Assembly: GCA_041650455.1 (NCBI GenBank)
Contig: JBAZLE010000001.1
Coordinates: 157-64,156, forward strand
Length of the DNA: 64,000 nt
Source of the DNA: Thermoplasmatota archaeon
GTDB lineage: Archaea > Thermoplasmatota > E2 > DHVEG-1
Direction: 5' to 3'
Shown here: piece by piece, positions 5,260-15,515 of the stretch
Position numbering within the stretch: the first letter of the stretch is position 1
Layout of the letters: every line of letters starts with the position of its first letter
The notes under the pieces: model-generated
The model's database searches: none
Told to the model about the DNA's origin: nothing
The model's input: the letters and a program-made list of their open reading frames with translations, nothing else
Program-made: the position numbers and the translations under genes

Positions 5260-5566
5260 GCTGGGCGTAGGTGGACGGTTGACGGTGACCTTTCCGGTTG
5301 CTGAGGAAAGTCCTCTCTCACTCTGAATCAGGATCCTGCGCAAGCAGGTAAGGCGAGAGTCTTAGCAGAGGAACAGAAACGACACAGCCCTTGGATTATG
5401 CGATGATTCACCTGGTGATGAGGTCTCCTTGGGATTTGGTGAAACGGCCAATCTGCTCCTGGAGCAAGCCCAAACATCGGGATCAGTTATTCAGACTGCT
5501 CGTAGGTAGGGCGCATCAGACAAATACCGTTAAAACAGAAAGAGGCTTACGGCCTACACCCAGCAC
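5260..5566 (+). ncRNA. rnpB: RNase P RNA (archaeal rnpB, ~307 nt)
   Basis: Noncoding stretch with a CR-I GAGGAAAGTCC motif and a CR-V-like ACAGAAAGAGGCTTA motif. A GGAGCAAGCCCAAACATCGGG segment resembles the archaeal type-A consensus. P1 forms between 5260-5271 (GCTGGGCGTAGG) and 5553-5564 (CCTACACCCAGC). P4 shows compensatory covariation (5' CCTCT with 3' AGAGG, versus the usual CCGGG/CCCGG). A TATA-like TTTATAA lies ~27 nt upstream. Confidence 0.75.
5539..5566 (+). repeat. rnpB 3'-terminal 28-nt segment (attL-like copy 1 of a direct repeat family)
   Basis: AAAGAGGCTTACGGCCTACACCCAGCAC. It is identical over 28 nt to 9117..9144, and diverged copies lie at 9757 and 10923. Confidence 0.8.
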
Positions 5567-5717
5567 TTATGTTCGAATAGAAATGGATTTCTGGATTTGA
5601 GTCGTAATAATTCTATTGCATCCAAAAACGTTCGGTAAAAGATTGGTTCTGGGCTATTCCTCAGATATCATTTCGACAAGTTCAGAGATATTCTTGCTTC
5701 AATTCTAAATCTTACGG

Positions 5718-6572
5718 CTACCATGGTGGTTGAAAAACATCTACTTTTACAAGGACAGCTGCTCCTAAAAAAAATGATCCTAATTTAATTCCAGTAAAAC
5801 CAAACGCCCCTGTATAACATTTCCAGTAAAATGCCATTACAGGAAATTCAATATGACCCCATAATGAACCGTTGATTGTGTCTATTCCATTTACACCTAC
5901 AGTATATATCCAACCAGTTGACGGATAAGCACCATAACCAGGATAATTATAAAATTCATCACCAAAAGTTAAAAGACTCAAAAAATTTAGCATAGACGCA
6001 GGCGTAAAATTTTTCATTATCCAAAGAAAAAAGGTTCCCATATATAGGAGAAAAAATTCAATTCTCGAAGTGAAGAACTTCTCGAATATAATCCTGAAAG
6101 CTGAAATTACGGTCTTAGCAACCCGACAATCTTCTGCTTCTCCAGTAATCAAACAAAAAAAATTATGACAAACAGAAATCTCCGAGTTATGTATTTTATT
6201 TACAATGTTTGTTGATTTTCCATTACCAACTACTAATCTCTGTGCCCGCTCAACACTCATACCCCTCGGCAACAACCCATACTTGTCCAACTCCACCACA
6301 GCATCCTTGAACAACGGGACTGCTTCCTCCCGTGTTGATGTCTGGTTCAATCTGGCTCTGAACTCCACCAGATACTGCTCCAGGTTCTGGTATTGTTCTC
6401 TGGTGAGTTTCACCGTGGTATCCCCGTATCCTTTGATGCCGCAGGGTTGTGTGGTGACTTCCACCAGGTCATCATCAGTGGATGCTTTCGCAGTGTTGAA
6501 GTTGATAGCTGGTGCTATGGTCACACCAACGAACAAGAGAATGATTCCAATCGCCAAACATTTCCGTTTCAT
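5718..6572 (-). CDS. Secreted hypothetical protein, paralog family A (signal peptide MKRKCLAIGIILLFVG...)
   Basis: The track ORF 5718..6800 was trimmed to the internal Met preceding a classic signal peptide. It shares GLLP(R/K)GMS(V/I)xRAQRLV and GW(I/V)(Y/W)T(V/I)G(V/M)NG...PPW blocks with the CDS at 8072..8938. The region is AT-rich. Confidence 0.6.
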   Translation of the reverse strand: MKRKCLAIGIILLFVGVTIAPAINFNTAKASTDDDLVEVTTQPCGIKGYGDTTVKLTREQYQNLEQYLVEFRARLNQTSTREEAVPLFKDAVVELDKYGLLPRGMSVERAQRLVVGNGKSTNIVNKIHNSEISVCHNFFCLITGEAEDCRVAKTVISAFRIIFEKFFTSRIEFFLLYMGTFFLWIMKNFTPASMLNFLSLLTFGDEFYNYPGYGAYPSTGWIYTVGVNGIDTINGSLWGHIEFPVMAFYWKCYTGAFGFTGIKLGSFFLGAAVLVKVDVFQPPW

Positions 6573-7284
6573 TGATTTATCTCCATATCCTTGATGTTCA
6601 ATCCGATTGATGGATATATCGGCCAGCATCCCAAAACAACTAAAAGAATAAAAAAAAGATAAGCAATAGTAGAAAACAGTATGTACCAAGGTGTTATCAA
6701 TAGTAATAATAATGGAAGTTGTAAAACAAACAAATACAACTCCTCTAGAATCATAGCAGGAATGCCAAACAAAAAAAACATTAAAAATAAACTTCCACAC
6801 AGAATAGGATAAGGAAACTCTGTATTTTCATTTTCACAATCACACTCAGAATCTTTCAACTGAGTTATTTCTGCATTGAGTATTGTATTCTTTTCAATAA
6901 CTGTTGATATCTCCTTCAGCATCCCCTGATTATCGATTTGATACTTACCAAGGATAGATTGCATTCTTGATGTGCTGATAAACCTTGAAAGCATCAATCC
7001 AAGAAGATACATCTGTCTAAGCTGATTCTTCATTAACACAGGAATCTCCGATGGTGGGAATATCCCTCTGCTTATCTGGGATTTAAGAATAATTCTCTGA
7101 ATATCCTTATTATTTGCAATATCAACGATGGTCTGGAATAACAACTCTCTCTGGTTGATTCTCTCTTTGATAGTGCTCTGTTGTGAGGTCTGGACTGTTT
7201 GGTATCCCACCACAGTGCTCAACGAACCCATCACAGAAGAACCACAGCACAGAGACTTACACCAATTAATGGACGTTTATCCAT
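6569..7284 (-). pseudogene. Secreted hypothetical protein, paralog family B, with a 1-nt frameshift inside the signal peptide
   Basis: The ATG at rc 7282-7284 gives MDKRPLIGVSLCAVVLL*. After a -1 shift the other frame continues (V)MGSLSTVVGYQT..., which matches the LLVLGSLSNVVGYQT leader of 7581..8081. Inserting one G restores VVLLVMGSLS. The C-terminal half is multi-TM. Confidence 0.5.
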
Positions 7285-7370
7285 GTCTTTCCTAGCCCTT
7301 TACCGCATTTTATAACACTGTTATCCTATATAAAGAATATTCCATCCCTGATAGGTAACAACATTTGCTC

Positions 7371-7448
7371 TTACCAGCCAAAGTAATTCTTTATTATAAA
7401 TCCGATGAGAAGACCGATGAAAAAACCAAAGATCGCCCCCCATATCAT
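7371..7448 (-). CDS. Tiny hydrophobic peptide (25 aa, MIWGAIFGFFIGLLIGFIIKNYFGW)
   Basis: An AGGAGG Shine-Dalgarno sits ~11 nt upstream of the ATG. The product is a single predicted TM helix. It lies between the paralog genes of the island. Confidence 0.25.
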   Translation of the reverse strand: MIWGAIFGFFIGLLIGFIIKNYFGW

Positions 7449-7492
7449 ACTTTTTCATTCCTCCTTATGATATGATATTTCATGTCATATAT

Positions 7493-7564
7493 TTAAATGT
7501 TATTCATAACACAGGTTCCAACGAACAAGAGAATGATTCCAACCGCCAACCGTTTCCTTTTCAT
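7493..7564 (-). pseudogene. Remnant 5' stub of a family-A gene (MKRKRLAVGIILLFVGTCVMNNI*)
   Basis: The 23-codon ORF is nearly identical at protein and DNA level to the signal peptide of 5718..6572 (MKRKCLAIGIILLFVG) and then terminates. This is a signature of deletion or rearrangement within a tandem gene array. Confidence 0.5.
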
Positions 7565-7580
7565 TTGAATATTCCTTCTG

Positions 7581-8081
7581 TTATGCTCTGTTTATTATTG
7601 GAGAGCAGATTATGAATATTTTATGCCTGTATACTAATTCATTATCATAATCAACACTTACTGATAAAGGAAATATACCAATATGACCTGGCGTCATGAG
7701 TGTTGGATTGCAATGAAAGTTTGTTGCATGGGATTTGTCTGGTTCTAATATTAAATTGAATTCCCATGTATAATATTCATTTGACACTCGAGGAGTAGGA
7801 AATTGAGATAATGTAATAATCACATCTAAGTCATTGATGGTATTTATTCCATTATTTGTGATATGAATAGTTGCATTGAAATCAGAGTTTTCTATGTATA
7901 TTCTTGGGAATCTTTGTTTGTATGTAATTATGTCTATTGTAATGTTAGATGTAGCTTCTGGTGTTGGTATAGTCTGATACCCAACGACATTACTCAATGA
8001 ACCTAGCACAAGAAGAACCACAGTACAGAAACAGACTCCAATTATGAGATACTTCTTTTTCATGGCATTTCCTAGGTCCAT
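7581..8081 (-). CDS. Small secreted hypothetical protein, paralog family B (166 aa, beta-rich)
   Basis: Signal peptide MKKKYLIIGVCFCTVVLLVLGSLSNVVGYQT, which it shares with 6569..7284. AT-rich. Confidence 0.55.
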   Translation of the reverse strand: MDLGNAMKKKYLIIGVCFCTVVLLVLGSLSNVVGYQTIPTPEATSNITIDIITYKQRFPRIYIENSDFNATIHITNNGINTINDLDVIITLSQFPTPRVSNEYYTWEFNLILEPDKSHATNFHCNPTLMTPGHIGIFPLSVSVDYDNELVYRHKIFIICSPIINRA

Positions 8082-8938
8082 GGAGGACTGTATGTAAAGT
8101 TGACTTCTCTAGCAAATCCTATATAGAAACGATTTGAATCATAATCCATTGATGAGAGAAAACAAAAAGGTTGAACGCCAACGAAACCTTTGATTCCTAC
8201 AGGATCCCAAGCATCAGTGTAACTATAATTATTATACACATATTTTCTATACCTTGTAAAAAGACCCCCGTAGAATGTTCCATTCCACTTTTGTACTCCG
8301 TTCATTCCAATCGTCCAAACCCATCCTGAAGAGGAAAAGTTCCACTCTTTAGTGACATTTCCATTCTCATAGGCTATAGCTCGACTTCCAGCAAACGCAA
8401 AGGGGCCAAACTTCAAGGGGCTGAAATAACGTATTGCATAAAACCATAGAAGAAAATTTAATTCTTCTTGAAGACTACTGTTGGTTAAAAGATAATAGAT
8501 AATCGGGATATCTAATATAGTAGGAAACGGCCTAAAAATAAAGTGATTCGTCATCCCAACAACAAGACAATTAGTATTCCCCATATCGTTCCCATCACTC
8601 TCTTGAGATGGATGTAAATATTCATTTTTTAAAAAACCCATAGTAACCAATCGTTGTGCCCGCTGGATGCTCATACCCTTTGGTAACAATCCTTGTTCGT
8701 GTAATGTTACGATTGCTTCGTTGATACAAACAAGAGCTTTCTGTTTCGTTGTGACTTTTTCTAATTTTACTTTTAAATCATTGAATATGTTCTCTACATT
8801 ACTATACTGAATATTTGTATTTATCCTAGGGTGTGATGTTTGTTTCCAACTTGTTGTTGAAGAAATAGGAAAAACCGCGGTAAGTATCACCAGCATACAA
8901 ATAAGGATACAAAATAGTCCTTTCTTGATAATTTTCAT
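8072..8938 (-). CDS. Secreted hypothetical protein, paralog family A
   Basis: The track ORF 8072..9094 was trimmed to the internal Met MKIIKKGLFCILICMLVILTA, which has a GGAGG Shine-Dalgarno 6 nt upstream. It shares conserved blocks with 5718..6572. Confidence 0.6.
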   Translation of the reverse strand: MKIIKKGLFCILICMLVILTAVFPISSTTSWKQTSHPRINTNIQYSNVENIFNDLKVKLEKVTTKQKALVCINEAIVTLHEQGLLPKGMSIQRAQRLVTMGFLKNEYLHPSQESDGNDMGNTNCLVVGMTNHFIFRPFPTILDIPIIYYLLTNSSLQEELNFLLWFYAIRYFSPLKFGPFAFAGSRAIAYENGNVTKEWNFSSSGWVWTIGMNGVQKWNGTFYGGLFTRYRKYVYNNYSYTDAWDPVGIKGFVGVQPFCFLSSMDYDSNRFYIGFAREVNFTYSPPWT

Positions 8939-9116
8939 TCCTCCGTACCATTTTAATAACAGTCTTCTCATATATATAATATATTCTTTAGTAGGAAAAC
9001 AGTGATATTGTTTTATAGAGACATTTAAAGAAAAAAAAGAATGGGATTTCTCCCATAAAATCTCGCTAACGTATTCTGTTCTGAGATGTGCCATATTTTT
9101 GTGTCTCTCGGAGGCG

Positions 9117-9144
9117 AAAGAGGCTTACGGCCTACACCCAGCAC
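9117..9144 (+). repeat. Direct repeat copy 2: exact duplicate of the rnpB 3' end (attR-like)
   Basis: AAAGAGGCTTACGGCCTACACCCAGCAC, a 28/28 match to 5539..5566. It lies between the secreted-protein cluster and the RelE gene. Confidence 0.8.
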
Positions 9145-9152
9145 CTAATAAA

Positions 9153-9407
9153 TTACAATTTTTTATAGACATTTTTCCGATGATCAACGAATAGTATTGA
9201 AATTCTTTTTGTTTTTTCATCGATATCAGCGATGACCCGATAATCTCCCACGCGTAGTTTGAATTCATCTCTAGAAGTCAATTTTTCAAAATAATGAAAT
9301 GGATTTTCTTTCGTGGAATGAATTTTTTCAAAAATTCTTTTTCTGGTTTTCTTTTCTAATTTACCTAGATCTTGTAACGTTACATCATCATAAATGACTG
9401 AATACAT
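9153..9407 (-). CDS. relE: Type II toxin, RelE/ParE family
   Basis: 84 aa. The C-terminal KLRVGDYRVIADIDEKTKRISILFVDHRKNVYK fits the RelE/ParE signature (YR(v/i)iY...i.il.v.HRk.vY). Confidence 0.8.
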   Translation of the reverse strand: MYSVIYDDVTLQDLGKLEKKTRKRIFEKIHSTKENPFHYFEKLTSRDEFKLRVGDYRVIADIDEKTKRISILFVDHRKNVYKKL

Positions 9408-9410
9408 TCA

Positions 9411-9650
9411 TTAAAGCCCTAGTCGATATTTGGCTTCCTCCTCGCTGACGAAATGCCCTTTTTTAATTCGTTCTCTTGCCGCTTCTATAGCTTTGATTGT
9501 TTCTTTGCTAAGTTTTGGTTCTTTTTTTAAGTTCTTTACGATGAAAATAAGCTTTTTGATAACCTCATCATAGCTTTCATTTTTGTATTCTCGGAATTGA
9601 TCGATTTGTGATTTTGTATCACTTTGAATCTTAATGGTTGTCGTGCTCAT
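9411..9650 (-). CDS. Putative cognate antitoxin (RelB/ParD-like)
   Basis: ~80 aa, immediately upstream of the toxin with a 4-nt gap. C-terminus is EEEAKYRLGL. The start was trimmed to MSTTT. Confidence 0.55.
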   Translation of the reverse strand: MSTTTIKIQSDTKSQIDQFREYKNESYDEVIKKLIFIVKNLKKEPKLSKETIKAIEAARERIKKGHFVSEEEAKYRLGL

Positions 9651-9756
9651 AATATACCAAAATATACCTATGTATACCATAGTATAAATAATTTCCTATC
9701 AACTTATTTCTTCTGTCATATAAATTTTTTAGAAAATCGTATTTTCTCCTGTTATA

Positions 9757-9784
9757 AAGAGGCTTACAGTCTACACATAGCACC
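9757..9784 (+). repeat. Direct repeat copy 3: diverged rnpB 3'-end duplicate
   Basis: AAAGAGGCTTACAGTCTACACATAGCAC, 24/28 identical to the rnpB 3' end. It shares an extra 5' flank, TTTTCTCCTG(T/C)T, with copy 4. Confidence 0.7.
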
Positions 9785-9796
9785 TATGAATAATCA

Positions 9797-10750
9797 TTAA
9801 TATTTTTTCATTATTGTGAAAAAGCTATCATATGTTTTTTTTCCTTGTTCTAACATAAACTGGTAATAACTTTTTTTTATTTTTCTTCGTAAACCTTTGA
9901 CTATCGCATTAGAGTATGCCCTACGGTTTTTTGCATAGATAATAATAGGGAAATATCCATGATCCATGAGGATCTTATTCATAATCAATCTACCTGTTCT
10001 TCCATTAGCATCTAAAAAAGGATGAATATATTCATAATTAAGGTGAAAATCGCAAGCTAATTGAAATGGGTATTTTATTTTTTTATTATCTTTATAATAT
10101 CGAAGAAGAGTATCTAGTTCTTTTTCTACTTGTTCAGGTGAAACAGTAGGTTGATTATTTACGATATTTTCTACTGTTTTAAATCCTTTAGGATAGTGAT
10201 CTCCTCCAGACATTGTCAGATTCTCGGTAAGAATATAATACAATCTTTTAATTGAAGAGATATTAAATTTAAAACCACTTTTTAAGTATTTTAACGCTTC
10301 AATTGAATTATACACTTCTTTAACTTCATTTGTATTTTTATACCTTGAATTACCAGTTTCAATAATTCTTTTTACTTCTTTGGCAGGAATTTTTGAACCT
10401 TCAATATTGTTAGAATTAAAAATGAATTCTTTAGCAAATTCAACAAGAACAACATCTCTAATATCTTTTATTTCAAAAAAATTGCTAATTTCAATAGATT
10501 TTAATTCCATATATTCTAACAAATGTTTGTTATACACAATATCTAACCTATCTAGAAATTTTTTTCGTATCTTGAATTCTTTTTCAGTTATATTATTAAA
10601 ATTTTTTTTAAGATAATCCTTAGCATTTACTGTAGAAATATTCTTTCCAATATGTTCTTTAATTCTGAAATTTTTTCCCATAAAAGAAAATTTTTTTACG
10701 AACGATATATATTCAGTATCATTAATCTTCTTTATTTCTATATATGACAT
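9797..10750 (-). CDS. fic: Fic/Doc family protein (putative AMPylator)
   Basis: 317 aa with a canonical Fic motif HPFLDANGRTGR. The gene is extremely AT-rich (~25% GC), consistent with horizontal acquisition. Confidence 0.85.
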   Translation of the reverse strand: MSYIEIKKINDTEYISFVKKFSFMGKNFRIKEHIGKNISTVNAKDYLKKNFNNITEKEFKIRKKFLDRLDIVYNKHLLEYMELKSIEISNFFEIKDIRDVVLVEFAKEFIFNSNNIEGSKIPAKEVKRIIETGNSRYKNTNEVKEVYNSIEALKYLKSGFKFNISSIKRLYYILTENLTMSGGDHYPKGFKTVENIVNNQPTVSPEQVEKELDTLLRYYKDNKKIKYPFQLACDFHLNYEYIHPFLDANGRTGRLIMNKILMDHGYFPIIIYAKNRRAYSNAIVKGLRRKIKKSYYQFMLEQGKKTYDSFFTIMKKY

Positions 10751-10922
10751 TAGAAAATAGTATGCTCACGGGGTTTATATATTTTTACAAATTGGGCAGC
10801 AAAAAATACCACTTTTTTTACCAATACGGCACAAATCATCCATACGTCTGTTAAACAAATTATAGATTTCCAGTAATTCTGTCAAGGATTTTTTCAAAAA
10901 AATTGTGTTTTTCTCCTGCTTT

Positions 10923-10951
10923 AAAGAGCTTTCCTATCTCCACGCAGCAAC
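10923..10951 (+). repeat. Direct repeat copy 4: degenerate rnpB 3'-end duplicate
   Basis: AAAGAGCTTTCCTATCTCCACGCAGCAAC preceded by TGTGTTTTTCTCCTGCTTT. Repeat plus flank align to copy 3 plus its flank (GTATTTTCTCCTGTTATAAAGAGGCTTACAGTCTACACATAGCAC). Confidence 0.55.
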
Positions 10952-10979
10952 CCCTTCATTTTGTTCAATCTCTCTCTTT

Positions 10980-11480
10980 TTAGATCCTTCTGCGTTTCCT
11001 TGCAGTCAGGACAAGCGTTTTAATTTCTGGTGGTAATTGTTCATCTTGCCATTTTCGTTCGATTTCTGTGGATTCCCCTGCGTTTTTTACGGCTTTTACC
11101 GCATACCATGCTGCTCCTAATGCATGGTCAGCCATATGGGCTGTTGCGACCGCGTGTCCAACAGAACGAGCCACAGCACTTGCTGTCTGGTTTGAAGATT
11201 TTCGAGCAACCGCATGAGCAGCTACTGCTGCATTTCGTGCATCACCCACGGAAGCCTGCCCGTGTTTCCACGCATTCGCCAGCTTTAATGCGTTTTTTAA
11301 TCGCTCGTCTATGTTGTCCCCAAAGAGCGGTAAGACATGCTTCGCACAGTCGCAAGCCCATGTCATCAACTGATGGTGCTGTTCCTTTTTTAAGGGTCCA
11401 CCCCGATGCTCTACAATAAATCGTTTGTCTCGCATTTTGTCTTTCTCCGTAATATTCTGTGAAGTTATTTGTGTTTTCAA
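10980..11480 (-). CDS. Hypothetical Ala-rich all-helical protein (possibly immunity-protein-like)
   Basis: 166 aa. The A-rich periodic helices GDARNAAVAAHAVARKS...AVARSVGHAVATAHMADHALGAAWYAVKAV suggest a possible immunity-protein-like role. The likely true start is the internal MRDKRF. GC content is higher than that of the neighbouring island genes. Confidence 0.5.
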   Translation of the reverse strand: MKTQITSQNITEKDKMRDKRFIVEHRGGPLKKEQHHQLMTWACDCAKHVLPLFGDNIDERLKNALKLANAWKHGQASVGDARNAAVAAHAVARKSSNQTASAVARSVGHAVATAHMADHALGAAWYAVKAVKNAGESTEIERKWQDEQLPPEIKTLVLTARKRRRI

Positions 11481-11867
11481 TCACTGCTCTTGCTTTATGT
11501 GTCTTAGTAATAAATCGAAAGATGATAGGAAACGTGGTCGTTTTCTTTTTTTCTTTCACCATTAGAAAAACATTCTTTGGAACTCGTTTTAAAAAGACGA
11601 CAGTGATGCCTCTTTTATGAAGAAAAGTTATGGTTTGAACCTAGCATCAAATGAAAATCTTTCCGTTCAAGAGATGTGCCCCTAAATCATCGACGATACT
11701 ATACAGTTCATTACATCATCAAAAATCTCTTAATAGAACACATTCATCTCAAAAGAGGTGTTAGAATTTTTTATCAATGAAACCCTTATTTTTTTTATAA
11801 CATCTCAAAAATTTATTTAGCTACACAATATAGGAGATTCAAATAAAAAAAAATTATTTCATGACAT

Positions 11868-14201
11868 CTATTCATCTATTTCTAGCCTTGGAAAGGTTAT
11901 TTCGAGATAACGCTCCTTCCCATTCGGACAATTACAGGAAAACCACAGATTTCCGTTCATGCTTTGATGTCTCATCTCGGAAGCATCATCAGCGACAAAA
12001 CCCACTTGTTCATACAGAGGATCTGTACTGAATGGAAACATCTTAAACATGAGAGAAATCTCTGGGTATACACTATGCAGAATCAAAGAAAGAACACGAC
12101 CAGTCGCACCATGCATTAACAGACGAACGAACAACTCAGTAATATGTGGGTATCTCTGGAACAGCATGGAGTACCATATCATCATTCTTTCTGCTGCATT
12201 TCGTGAGATGGTTTGTGTCAGACTTAGATTGTATACATTCTCGTTTTGGCTGTTTACCCGAAAACGGGCGTTCATCCCCATCAGGAGCGGTTCATGGTAA
12301 ATAAGGTTCACCATCCCGTACCGATTTCCAGCGATGAACGCGGTGAAATTCATCACTCCATTCGTATCGCATAATACCTCTGGGGACACAGAGAAGTTCA
12401 CTTGTTCATTTTCACTAAGAGGTCCCGTCATGTTGTACCAATGACCGCTTAAATAGAGATGGAAATCATCCGTCGTATCACTTGTTCGTTGCCGTTTCAC
12501 ACTAAACAACGAGACATCATACTCAGCAGCATCCAAAAAATTCAATACCCCCTGTAAAAACCACGCATTCGTGTCGTCTGGAACCGTGTAAAAACCATGA
12601 ATCGTCTCATACGATGATCCAAAAATATGAGAAAAGACTTGGGATTCACTCCCAGAAAGTACGCTGTATTGGGAGCGAGTTGTCCAGTCGCAACAGCTGA
12701 CGTTCATTACCACTCTTCCGGTCCCAGAGGTACATCGAGCAGTCATGGTGAAATTGTAGGTCTGACTAGGAACAGCAATAGAAATCGTCCCCATAGGAAA
12801 CGACTGGTACGGTTGCCCGCTCCGCCCATCCTCCTGGATAGAGGTATTATCCGGATATTTCTCGGGAAATGTAAGATTCGTAGGTCCAGAGACGTGCATC
12901 CCTGGGCGGGTCCACTGAACGTTGCCGGAGTGATCGTTCCCAAATCCAAGGATGTTTTCATGTGCAGAACCTGGAGGTGATTCCATACGTGCATCAAAAA
13001 ATAGCTCCATAGGGGCTGTACCAATCAGTTGAAGCGTGATGTCTGGAGATAATATTTTCATATCGGTGAGCTGTGTTTCATTATCCTGCAGAAAGATTGG
13101 AAACGAATACCAATTCTCAGCATCAGGATTAAAAGATGTCGGGACCATCCATGAATGACGATATTCCGGCGCCCAATGGCCACCCGCGCCATTGTTCTCC
13201 CAGCTCGCTGTGATAATGCCTGTGGAAGAAATATTGTAAATCACCACTCTGTCTAACTCATGCCGATAGTGCCAATCCATTTGCGGATAGGGCGAGGAAA
13301 ACGCGATTTCATGTCCAAATGTTCTGATCGGGTTCGTCAGTCCGGTGCTCTGGTTACTCACGTACCAGTCAAGCCAATGGTTATGACCATGGATCCACAG
13401 TGTAATCTGCGGGTTGTTCTGAAACAAGCTCGCCCACCAGTCCATATCCTGCTTCCCACGATATGGCTTCAAGCTTTTCTCCTTTGTGGTGTCCTCGATA
13501 GCCTGATGACAAAGGATCACGGTCGTTGTCGTTGGGTACTGGTTCGTCATATATTCGATCCATTCATATTCAACAGGGTGCGTCCACGTCACATATCCAA
13601 GTTCTGGGACAACCAGAAAGAGTATCCCCTCGTACATCATCGCATATACCGGAGCGTTCATACTGAGTTCGTCAATCAATGTTTTCGTAAGATTATGTGG
13701 GTCTCCGCTGTTCATCTGATAATCAGTCACATCATGGTTACCCACCACATAATAAAAAGGCAGATTCAGATGAGAAATCAAATATGCTTTCAAATTATTC
13801 CTATACTGATTAACAATCCAAGGAAGTCCTTCCCCATGCACCTGCGCGGTGTTATGGTTCACGATATCACCCAGATGCACCACAAAATCAAGCCTATTAG
13901 TCGCATCAACCAGATCCTTTCCAAGTTGATCCAGATGATCAGCGATATCATAAAAAGGATTTTGATATTTGGCGCCAATATGTGTATCAGAAAATGCTGC
14001 AAAGCTCAAATAACTATTTTGTAAAGCGATTCTCTCTCTTCTATCAATTTTCGATGTATCCTCAGAGAGCAACACTGATCTATCATTCATTATTATTCCA
14101 CTGGCTGTTCCCTTCGAATTGATATTTGGTATTATCATGATTAAAATAGAACAAAAAAGGAATCCCGTACAAATTACGACACTCACTATTTTCTTTTTCA
14201 T
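11868..14201 (-). CDS. Secreted calcineurin-like metallophosphoesterase with a large C-terminal extension (777 aa)
   Basis: Signal/TM N-terminus. Metallophosphatase motifs GDIVNHN, VVGNHD and IHGHNHW are present. The C-terminal ~350 aa have no recognised domain. Confidence 0.8.
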   Translation of the reverse strand: MKKKIVSVVICTGFLFCSILIMIIPNINSKGTASGIIMNDRSVLLSEDTSKIDRRERIALQNSYLSFAAFSDTHIGAKYQNPFYDIADHLDQLGKDLVDATNRLDFVVHLGDIVNHNTAQVHGEGLPWIVNQYRNNLKAYLISHLNLPFYYVVGNHDVTDYQMNSGDPHNLTKTLIDELSMNAPVYAMMYEGILFLVVPELGYVTWTHPVEYEWIEYMTNQYPTTTTVILCHQAIEDTTKEKSLKPYRGKQDMDWWASLFQNNPQITLWIHGHNHWLDWYVSNQSTGLTNPIRTFGHEIAFSSPYPQMDWHYRHELDRVVIYNISSTGIITASWENNGAGGHWAPEYRHSWMVPTSFNPDAENWYSFPIFLQDNETQLTDMKILSPDITLQLIGTAPMELFFDARMESPPGSAHENILGFGNDHSGNVQWTRPGMHVSGPTNLTFPEKYPDNTSIQEDGRSGQPYQSFPMGTISIAVPSQTYNFTMTARCTSGTGRVVMNVSCCDWTTRSQYSVLSGSESQVFSHIFGSSYETIHGFYTVPDDTNAWFLQGVLNFLDAAEYDVSLFSVKRQRTSDTTDDFHLYLSGHWYNMTGPLSENEQVNFSVSPEVLCDTNGVMNFTAFIAGNRYGMVNLIYHEPLLMGMNARFRVNSQNENVYNLSLTQTISRNAAERMMIWYSMLFQRYPHITELFVRLLMHGATGRVLSLILHSVYPEISLMFKMFPFSTDPLYEQVGFVADDASEMRHQSMNGNLWFSCNCPNGKERYLEITFPRLEIDE

Positions 14202-14579
14202 AGACTCAAAACTTAACCATGATTATTATAATATATTTGTTATTTATCAGTTTATATCATTTATTGCTAACTACGAGAAAATCAACATTTTTAGTAGTTT
14301 TTCAGTTTTTCATCTAGATCTTTCATCTTCTCTTGATGTCAAAAGTTGTGGTTTTTCCCTCTTACACCAGATTTGTCGCCTAAACCTGTCACTGCTAGGC
14401 AAAACAATATAAAGGGAAGAGACGTATATCTCTATATTAAGGGAATAGAGATAAAAATTTCACATTTTTGTTAACCCAAACGTATGAGATTTTTTATTTT
14501 TGTTCTTTCACACCGATTTTCAGCGTGAACGCTGGAGCTGTAAAAAAATCTGGAAAGAAAGATACGGGATGGATTTGAT

Positions 14580-15515
14580 TTGACGAGAAAAAATAAACAA
14601 CAGATAGAAGAAATTCTTTGTTGTCCTGAATGCGGGAGCGGACATCTCCGAAAGGACTATTCTCGAGCGGAGTTAGTCTGTTCTGGTTGTGGACTTGTTG
14701 TTGATGAAGATATCATTGACCATGGTCCGGAATGGCGTGCCTTTGATAATGAACAACGGGAGAAGCGATCTCGAACCGGGTCTCCAATGACCTACACCAT
14801 GCACGATAAAGGACTGTCTACGACTATCGGATGGACAAACAGGGATGCGTACGGGAGAGCTATTCCGACAAAAAACCGGGCTCAATTGTATCGACTACGG
14901 AAATGGCAACGGCGCGTCCGCATCAGTGATGCAACCGAGAGGAACCTCGCAGTTGCTCTCTCAGGAATCGACAGACTCGCCTCAGGTATGGGTCTTCCAA
15001 GATCTGTACGAGAGACTGCTGCAATGATTTATCGAAAAGCAGCGATGAAAAATCTCGTTCGAGGAAGAAGCATCCAAGGGGTGACTGCTGCCTCGTTATA
15101 CGCCGCATGCCGACAATGTCATGTCCCTCGGACGTTAGATGAAATTAGTGTAATTGCGCAAATATCACGAAAAGAGATTGGGAGAAACTATCGGTATGTC
15201 TCTCGTGAGCTTGCATTAAAATTAATGCCGACCACACCAAAAGATTATATCTCACGGTTCTGCAGTGAATTAAAACTTAGCAATAACGTTCAAGCAAAGA
15301 CACTGGAGATATTAGCACATGCGATACATCAGGAGCTTACCAGCGGACGAGGACCGACAGGACTTGCTGCCGCCTCCTTGTACATCTCCTCTGTTCTCTG
15401 TGGTGAACGCAGGACACAACGAGAAGTTGCAGAGATTGCGGGAGTCACTGAGGTGACCATTCGCAATCGATACAAAGAACTCGCACAAAAACTCGATATT
15501 CATCTTGTGATGTAA
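14580..15515 (+). CDS. tfb: Transcription initiation factor IIB (TFB)
   Basis: N-terminal Zn-ribbon CPECGS...CSGCG followed by two cyclin-like repeats. There is no in-frame ATG, so the apparent start is TTG. Confidence 0.9.

Follow-up and report, generated by a model that had tools for sequence, protein, structure and literature searches.

The window analyzed here, 64,000 nt of a Thermoplasmatota archaeon genome (GenBank assembly GCA_041650455.1, contig JBAZLE010000001.1), carries the gene for RNase P RNA, rnpB, followed by a series of AT-rich gene modules separated by copies of the rnpB 3' end. Tandem accretion of integrative elements at this stable-RNA gene, with integron-like features, is very probably the origin of the array, the rnpB 3' end acting as the chromosomal attachment site (attB) for elements with XerA-like integrases. 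Judged from sequence, the inserted tract runs from 5567 to ~14392, between rnpB and the TFB gene.

A covariance-model scan placed a full-length archaeal RNase P RNA at 5263-5561 on the plus strand (Rfam RF00373, 165.7 bits, E = 2.5e-47), in agreement with a first-pass annotation that had assigned 5260..5566 to this RNA from the letters alone. The gene keeps its synteny with aminotransferase and transglutaminase-like genes in ~30 relatives. Its terminal 28 nt, AAAGAGGCTTACGGCCTACACCCAGCAC (5539-5566; 23 bases within the modelled RNA and 5 past the end of the RF00373 match), recur exactly at 9117-9144, where none is expected from 100 shuffles. The perfect repeat noted in the first pass even extends to 29 nt (5538-5566 = 9116-9144). 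A third copy matches at 24/28 positions (5 mismatches in 29 from 9755) and lies at 9756-9783, one base from the 9757..9784 given originally. The fourth, mutated copy, also recognized earlier, lies at 10923-10950, with 19/29 ungapped identities (10 mismatches in 29 from 10922). When up to 11 mismatches to the 29-mer are allowed on both strands of the 64-kb window, only these four places are found (5538, 9116, 9755, and 10922), all on the plus strand.

Most displaced copies of this 28-bp core are preceded by a conserved ~55-nt arm that is not derived from rnpB. The first-pass view of the repeats as mere duplicates of the rnpB end therefore holds for the core part only. When 67 unique sequences from outside the window were combined into an arm-plus-core profile, it recovered copies 1 to 4 at E values of 7e-9, 3e-9, 4e-17, and 1.5e-8, respectively, and nothing further below E = 1 in the 64 kb. 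Copy 4, borderline if judged by its core, is real, as sequences from outside the window recover it at this significance. Copies 3 and 4 are also alike over ~70 nt left of the core (repeat families D1 and D6), with 76% identity over 41 nt (14 nt of arm and 27 nt of core; family D1). As first described, the copies are co-oriented and sit at the borders of AT-rich modules encoding secreted paralogs, a toxin/antitoxin pair, a Fic protein, and an Ala-rich protein, the last of which proved to be Imm5-like. The GC content is 22-38% across 5600-10950 versus 45-50% in the flanks. Gene order and junctions of the window are reproduced in the independent assemblies L001, L142, and L143, which come from two other data sets.

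Relatives were found via the aminotransferase gene 1.7 kb upstream of rnpB. This yielded 72 loci, nearly all from uncultured Thermoplasmatota metagenome-assembled genomes (MAGs) of the SM1-50/SG8-52-3 kind. In L013, no insert separates an intact rnpB from the TFB gene, which lies 223 nt farther on and is followed by a cold-shock gene. This is the empty site that serial insertion predicts and that the first-pass annotation had named as a test. The flank that directly follows rnpB in L013 is also the flank after the outermost displaced core in L057, after the aligned remnant position in L012, and after a fifth, strongly decayed copy in the window. In the four-way alignment, copy 5 falls opposite copy 4 of L057 and opposite the true rnpB 3' end of L013. 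Because the L013 flank sits beyond copy 5, the genes for the Imm5-like protein and the phosphoesterase are inserted DNA as well, and the array extends well past the end at ~10955 proposed in the first pass, which had missed the fifth repeat.

Modules between rnpB and TFB vary in number and order among the relatives. L012 reads rnpB-Imm5-phosphoesterase-TFB and L010 rnpB-phosphoesterase, and in L057 an arm-core closes each module of the series rnpB-[integrase fragment ... Fic]-[ParE]-[phosphoesterase]-TFB. L005 carries rnpB-[HigB-like toxin-antitoxin (TA)]-[secreted proteins]-[ParE]-Imm5, and in L064 the ParE module immediately follows rnpB. Same-orientation duplicates of a genome's own rnpB terminus are present at 7 genome loci and absent from 11. 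Both flanks of L008 and L108 are 98% identical, and their first cassettes are unrelated, which shows that cassettes turn over within a species. The contigs of nine relatives (L003, L006, L007, L011, L025, L027, L031, L043, and L054) stop inside the rnpB 3' end or at most ~100 nt past it, which fits assembly breaks at a repeated, strain-variable site. The suggestion that the oldest, most decayed copy lies furthest from the gene is true of the window and fails in L005, where the third copy is perfect and the second has 2 mismatches.

Integrases and the attachment site

Open reading frames (ORFs) of the Phage_integrase family lie directly 3' of rnpB in L061, L058, and L023, and a C-terminal integrase fragment occupies this position in L057. 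Together with the empty site and the varied modules, they support the serial site-specific integration at the rnpB 3' end put forward in the first pass. In L061, a perfect pair of 28-bp direct repeats 4.95 kb apart encloses an integrase gene, which begins 85 nt past rnpB and is transcribed toward it; its 367-aa product combines a Phage_integrase domain with a SAM-like N-terminal domain (E = 3e-29). In L058, a homolog of 358 aa is found at the corresponding place, where it heads a larger element with RadC and other genes, and more homologs occur in L023, L099, L104, and L126. The catalytic R-K-H-R-H-Y residues are kept in all three full-length integrases that were aligned. Their closest solved structure is Thermoplasma XerA (5HXY, E = 6e-42), and the best NCBIfam model is archaeal XerA (NF040815; 97-176 bits, under the cut-off of 220); with the integron-integrase model TIGR02249 they reach 30-89 bits, where 265 would be required. 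At the C-terminus, the proteins are extended by an additional ~80-100 aa. In the integrated elements of L061, L058, and L099, the integrase ORFs are complete (355-367 aa), and the core adjoins them instead of lying within them. The genes are encoded within repeat-bounded, sporadically present elements.

In the mechanism proposed here, the rnpB 3' end would be the chromosomal attB for small integrative elements of this Thermoplasmatota lineage, which would encode XerA-like tyrosine recombinases. Each element would carry a 28-bp core equal to the rnpB terminus, flanked at one end by a conserved arm of ~55 bp; in intact elements, the integrase gene and further motif copies would lie beyond the opposite end of the core. 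Recombination within the core would rebuild rnpB and leave arm plus core at the far end, and later integrations into any available core would stack modules head to tail. From the sequences compared, we infer that these integrases catalyze the reaction and that cassettes lacking an integrase are mobilized in trans.

The layout of the attachment (att) sites is consistent with this scheme. The arm consensus reads TGTTTCTTCTGTCTTATAAA-TTCAT-AAAAAATTGT-GTTTTTCTCCTGTTGC, followed by the core, and its motifs are CTTCTGTC, the most conserved block, and TTTTCTCCTGTTGC. In the window, the arm precedes copies 3, 4, and, in decayed form, 5, with block 1 of copy 3 (TTCTTCTGTC) at 9709-9718 and block 2 (TTTTCTCCTGTTAT) at 9742-9755. 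Copy 2 is preceded by a diverged variant that is also found in L005. In the intact element of L099, the arm-core is followed by four to five direct repeats of TTCTGTCTTC, ~20 nt apart, and then by the 3' end of the integrase gene. Since these repeats adjoin the integrase gene, the arm block CTTCTGTC is a motif repeated on both sides of the core, and a two-sided arrangement of this kind would be expected if the motif copies were accessory sites for integrase binding in an attP, which they may be. The islets of the window have no such repeats on the integrase side.

The likely crossover point was narrowed down by comparing L008 and L108. Their left break falls exactly at the rnpB core end and their right break within a core, at ...TTAYG/GCCTACACC (the slash marks the break). 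Displaced cores carry variants such as GGCGTA in their left halves only. The break inside the core and the confinement of variants to the left halves suggest strand exchange in mid-core, with the crossover probably near ...TTACG/GCCT.... The core has no dyad symmetry.

Two variants of the junction were observed. An inverted arm block 2 (CAACAGGAGAAAAA) stands immediately right of the rnpB core in L008 (13132-13150), L134, and L030 (7268-7287), with the cargo on the plus strand. This suggests a second element subtype, with an attP in which inverted repeats flank the core. In L058 (6720-6842), the rnpB beside the full integrase-bearing element has an altered 3' end: GACG follows ...GGCTTACGGCCT and is still paired by the covariance model into a shortened P1 helix. 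Next come a 47-nt insert with a perfect hairpin and then ACACCCAGC..TTATGTTCC, resembling the rnpB end and right flank of the window. An element may be the source of a variant ribozyme terminus.

Cassettes and competing explanations

Arm-core junctions were matched in 66 metagenome contigs, and 8 metagenome arrays are anchored at rnpB. Across all sequence examined, 89 loci carry sites, none of them in mixed orientation, with up to six sites per contig. The 72 intervals between neighboring sites, here called cassettes, measure 881 bp in the median, with a mode of 590-690 bp. Cargo ORFs lie on the strand opposite to the core in 115 of 161 cases, and in 33 of 63 cassettes, from unrelated families, no more than 21 nt separate the stop codon from the left core. 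Most cassettes are TA pairs. The commonest cargo is a ParE/RelE toxin with its antitoxin (20 copies in 17 loci), followed by Fic, nucleotidyltransferase, HigB-like, PIN, HicAB, NYN, and YoeB-like proteins; genes for secreted proteins and a small number of longer metabolic segments are carried too. Three long cassettes (2.9-6.1 kb; L116, L090, and L088) have an 85+72-aa (or 83+72-aa) TA-like pair at one end, next to the arm in L116 and L090 and next to the left core in L088, along with AbiE-like, ImmA/PIN-like, radical-SAM, and methyltransferase genes. Such a terminal pair could explain TA-only cassettes as what decay of long units leaves behind.

Some cassettes are far more alike between species than their surroundings. 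The ParE cassette of the window is 96.6% identical at the nucleotide level to that of L064, with the shared segment running from core to core, compared with 80% for the aminotransferase gene and 74% for the whole left flank. Three genomes with flanks of ~76% identity share a HigB-like cassette at 97-99% identity. Thirteen arrays contain the ParE cassette, which has at least nine different left neighbors, and mean pairwise identity within this family is 0.62 at third codon positions, 0.81 in arm block 1, 0.89 in the left core, and 0.82-0.94 in the right core. Fic, Imm5, and phosphoesterase modules are 70-83% identical in nucleotides between species, about as much as housekeeping genes. Cassettes without an integrase have thus apparently moved between species recently, and the data favor continued use of the sites, presumably by integrases acting in trans. 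Site conservation might in part also reflect gene conversion from rnpB or promoter activity of the arm. In the window, only the first pair of cores (copies 1 and 2) is still perfect. With no integrase in the window and increasing decay from copy 3 to copy 5, the distal array is probably fixed in place. Calling the islets fossils, as the first-pass annotation did, therefore suits the distal array of the window; it does not suit the cassette families, with their recent transfer between species and att sites conserved well above the neutral rate.

These same data invite a second explanation, in which the array is an integron-like cassette platform and not a graveyard of decayed islands. Units of cargo plus ~85 bp of arm and core would be captured and shuffled at rnpB-type cores by an Xer-like recombinase acting in trans, which a co-resident element with an integrase, or some other locus of the genome, would supply. 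The short cassette lengths, the shared direction of most cargo ORFs, the varied left neighbors of the ParE cassette, the sharp core-to-core limits of the near-identical segments (96-98% versus 74-76% in flanks), and, within the ParE family, a much stronger conservation of cores (0.82-0.94) and of arm block 1 than of third codon positions all speak for it. So does the position of stop codons close to the left core, which is not expected from random deletion of an integrase and its neighbors, and a cargo of mainly TA and defense-type genes, as in chromosomal integrons. However, the sites fold as DNA into small local stems only and form no attC-like hairpin (z = -1.0 to -2.4), and the integrases, at 70-89 bits, are far under integron-integrase models. 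The integrases that do occur belong to repeat-bounded elements (L061 and L099) and not to a fixed platform, none is seen in the majority of arrays, and no circular cassette was observed. In addition, the TA genes beside the arm in larger elements (L116 and L090) would likewise account for TA-only remnants, through addiction-biased decay. We regard this explanation as a tentative possibility. In its fullest form, Marine Benthic Group D (MBG-D)-like Thermoplasmatota might have a cassette system analogous to integrons, with the rnpB end as the fixed site, the ~85-bp arm plus core as the cassette site, and Xer-like recombinases in trans capturing, shuffling, and exchanging between species integrase-less cassettes of one or two genes, mainly TA and defense genes; we consider this proposal credible enough to pursue, while holding it short of probable.

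A single origin of the array, whether as one composite island or through segmental duplication at the rnpB 3' end, followed by vertical descent in which deletions alone produced the differences among relatives, is improbable. The housekeeping-like divergence of the Fic, Imm5, and phosphoesterase modules is compatible with old vertical insertions. Yet module order is not constant (ParE precedes Fic in the window and follows it in L057), genomes that are 98% identical start their arrays with unrelated cassettes, and the ParE and HigB-like cassettes are much closer between species than the flanks.

Scarcely credible is a conserved host motif resembling the rnpB end (a terminator, promoter element, or small-RNA module) spread by local duplication or gene conversion: the minus-strand arm does have a TATA-like TTTATAWG upstream of cargo genes, where it may act as a promoter, and the spacer upstream of the antitoxin is conserved too, but the repeats lie only downstream of rnpB, always co-oriented and nowhere else in the 64 kb, the modules between them vary by presence and absence, Rfam found no RNA family at the repeats, and both the empty site and the integrases at junctions contradict a motif unrelated to insertions.

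Several points weigh against serial integration at rnpB as read here. No relative of the integrases was found in any of the six frames of the window by tblastn and profile search, as the first pass had also reported, so any activity of the array in this genome is putative only. Copy 5 is not significant by profile (E ~5) and is placed by synteny only; we retained it because the four-way alignment positions it, which the profile alone could not support. All relatives are MAGs or metagenome contigs, in which mis-assembly at repeats is possible; three independent assemblies agree on the array of the window itself. The pattern used to search the metagenomes included arm block 2 and the first half of the core, which by itself accounts for part of their conservation in those contigs. 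Finally, no excised circle, attP-bearing free element, or free viral or plasmid form was found. Viral contigs gave no match with either a degenerate core or the arm-core junction, and an integrase-profile scan of them returned only two distant matches (~30% identity).

Islets of the window

The window holds four modules, possibly five, all without an integrase and resembling cis-mobilizable elements (CIMEs). Their coordinates are listed in Table 1.

Table 1. Features of the rnpB-associated array (window coordinates)
Feature	Position	Strand	Description
rnpB	5263..5566	+	RF00373 model match ends at 5561; terminal 28 nt (5539-5566) are core copy 1, an attL-type junction
Islet 1 (3.55 kb)	5567..9116	-	Four genes for predicted secreted/membrane proteins
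Core copy 2	9117..9144	+	28/28 match to the rnpB terminus; independent profile E = 3.4e-9
Islet 2 cargo	9145..9697	-	ParE-family toxin 9153-9407 (PF05016, E = 3e-9); DUF7557 antitoxin 9411-9650 (PF24434, E = 2.4e-8)
Conserved arm + core copy 3	9698..9783	+	Independent arm+core profile E = 3.7e-17; flank alignment
Islet 3 cargo	9797..10750	-	Fic-domain protein, 317 aa (PF02661, E = 7.4e-16)
Decayed arm + core copy 4	10866..10950	+	Independent profile E = 1.5e-8
Islet 4	10980..14201	-	Imm5-like protein 10980-11480 (PF21805, E = 2.7e-42); secreted calcineurin-like metallophosphoesterase 11868-14201 (PF00149, E = 1.7e-12)
Fifth, strongly decayed arm + core	14310..14392 (core ~14366-14392, 16/28)	+	Marks the outer end of the array
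Ancestral chromosomal flank	14399..15515	+	Conserved TFB-upstream region 14399-14579; TFB gene 14580-15515

Islet 1 has a GC content of mostly 31-40%, with a single 47% patch. Its four genes lie at 5718-6575, 6569-7234, 7581-8081, and 8072-8914; the first and last are paralogous, and none of the four products has a Pfam match. The diverged arm variant ...TCTCTCGGAGGCG precedes core copy 2, and both this variant and homologous genes are shared with a cassette at 9867-12828 of L005. A 48-nt segment at 7518-7565 is 92% identical to 6526-6573, where the first secreted-protein gene has its 5' end and encodes its signal peptide (family D4), and no long ORF follows the 7518-7565 segment. As this segment is the remnant of a truncated paralog, islet 1 is itself decaying. 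For the mechanically called 360-aa ORF at 5718-6800 on the minus strand, the probable start is at 6575, with a signal peptide (MKRKCLAIGIILLFVG...); the 75 codons before this point overlap the 3' end of the neighboring gene.

In islet 2, the stop codon of the ParE toxin is 8 nt from core copy 2. All four mismatches in core copy 3 are G/C-to-A/T changes. This 14% divergence compares with only ~3% between the rest of the ParE cassette and its L064 counterpart, so that the core seems to decay faster than its cargo in this genome. The Fic stop codon of islet 3 is 13 nt from core copy 3, and orthologous single-gene Fic cassettes occur at differing array positions in L057, L078, L087, L095, and L119.

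Islet 4, whose GC content is host-like, is the oldest and is absent from the empty-site genome L013. The phosphoesterase gene forms an arm-core-bounded cassette in L057 and L127, and Imm5 is a separate cassette in L127. An alignment to L127, L012, and L008 revealed no convincing remnant site between the two genes of the window (11481-11867). Apart from the array, the minus-strand segment 1447-1564, adjoining tRNA-Gly(TCC) at 1584-1656, has an Rfam tRNA match of 40.7 bits over 118 nt and was not called by ARAGORN; it is probably an intron-containing tRNA gene.

Relation to known systems

Archaeal integrases target tRNA genes, plus a few protein-coding or intergenic sites, and ssrS has also been reported as an RNA-gene target of Islander/TIGER-type elements. 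Tandem arrays of integrative elements at tRNA and tmRNA genes are well documented (PMC7192596). A tyrosine integrase acting at the 3' part of a stable-RNA gene regenerates the gene and leaves the displaced fragment at the far end (PMC7192596; PMC4383910). Islander/TIGER islands share with the present array the targeted and regenerated 3' end of an RNA gene, the displaced copy at the far end, and tandem reuse. In contrast to them, the target here is rnpB, most units have no integrase, and the units are far below the 2-200 kb accepted by those tools. The window itself shows an intact target gene at one end, a direct repeat of the target 3' fragment at the other, and sporadic occurrence with an uninterrupted site in a relative. 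An integrase inside the element, the remaining hallmark of such islands, is found not in the window but in L061, L058, L023, L099, L104, and L126 (a fragment in L057).

CIMEs have lost their integration genes and kept their att sites, form by decay and accretion, and can potentially be mobilized by a neighbor's integrase (PMC5704250). Like the CIMEs of the ICESt1/ICESt3 type in Streptococcus thermophilus, the islets have no integration genes, keep attL and attR, and lie in tandem at the 3' end of a target gene. Islet 1 stands between two perfect cores and islets 2 to 4 between progressively decayed ones, and integrase-bearing elements sit within arrays in L099 and L057. They differ from those CIMEs in being archaeal, in an Xer-like integrase, in having no conjugation module, in cassettes of mostly 0.6-1.3 kb whose cargo abuts the core, and in arrays of at least six sites per contig, as well as in the likely transfer of integrase-less units between species, for which sequence identity is the evidence.

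Integron cassette arrays without an adjacent integrase are known as clusters of attC sites lacking integron-integrases (CALINs) (PMC9668308). Chromosomal integrons resemble the present arrays in their short, co-oriented one- or two-gene cassettes, each with its own recombination site, in their richness in TA genes, and in the many arrays without an adjacent integrase. They differ in that here no folded attC is seen, the integrase is not IntI, and insertion occurs at the end of a host RNA gene whose sequence is the core of every site. An integron proper was accordingly rejected: the co-oriented array of short cassettes is there, and neither an IntI-type integrase nor an attC hairpin was found. 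Two further candidates were also discarded. An SSV-type "suicidal" integrase, with attP inside the integrase gene, does not agree with the intact ORFs beside the core. A housekeeping XerA (dif resolvase) does not agree with scores below the equivalog cut-off, the extra C-terminal tail, or encoding in sporadic repeat-bounded elements.

In the CTX/TLC arrays of Vibrio cholerae, integrative mobile elements exploiting Xer (IMEX) that lack an integrase stack in tandem at a 28-bp site, dif, using the Xer recombinase in trans. The rnpB arrays resemble these in their tandem, integrase-less units, but the target here is not dif, the core has no dyad symmetry, and related full elements encode their own Xer-like integrase. 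The rnpB arrays differ from known systems in their target gene, their Xer-like enzyme, and their very small, tightly packed cassettes with a uniform site; the mechanism is the established one.

Neither a review of archaeal tyrosine recombinases nor the TIGER paper (PMC7192596) mentions RNase P or rnpB, and the main text of a report on archaeal integrons (PMC9668308) mentions neither RNase P nor Thermoplasmatota. A 2026 provirus survey classes 13.5% of RNA targets as "ncRNA," which are not named in its main text. A literature search pairing rnpB or RNase P RNA with integration returned no relevant paper; its coverage was partial, and it is no proof of novelty.

The att site is sharply defined, with a 28-bp core and a 55-bp arm containing a short repeated motif, and is directly testable in vitro. 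The system could serve as a compact tool for site-specific integration and as a marker of strain variation in uncultured sediment archaea. As an att site, rnpB would extend the rule that stable-RNA genes are landing pads to another universal ribozyme gene. The small, co-oriented cassettes found across the lineage, with their apparent recent exchange, suggest that cassette trafficking has converged here on an integron-like architecture with an Xer-type enzyme.

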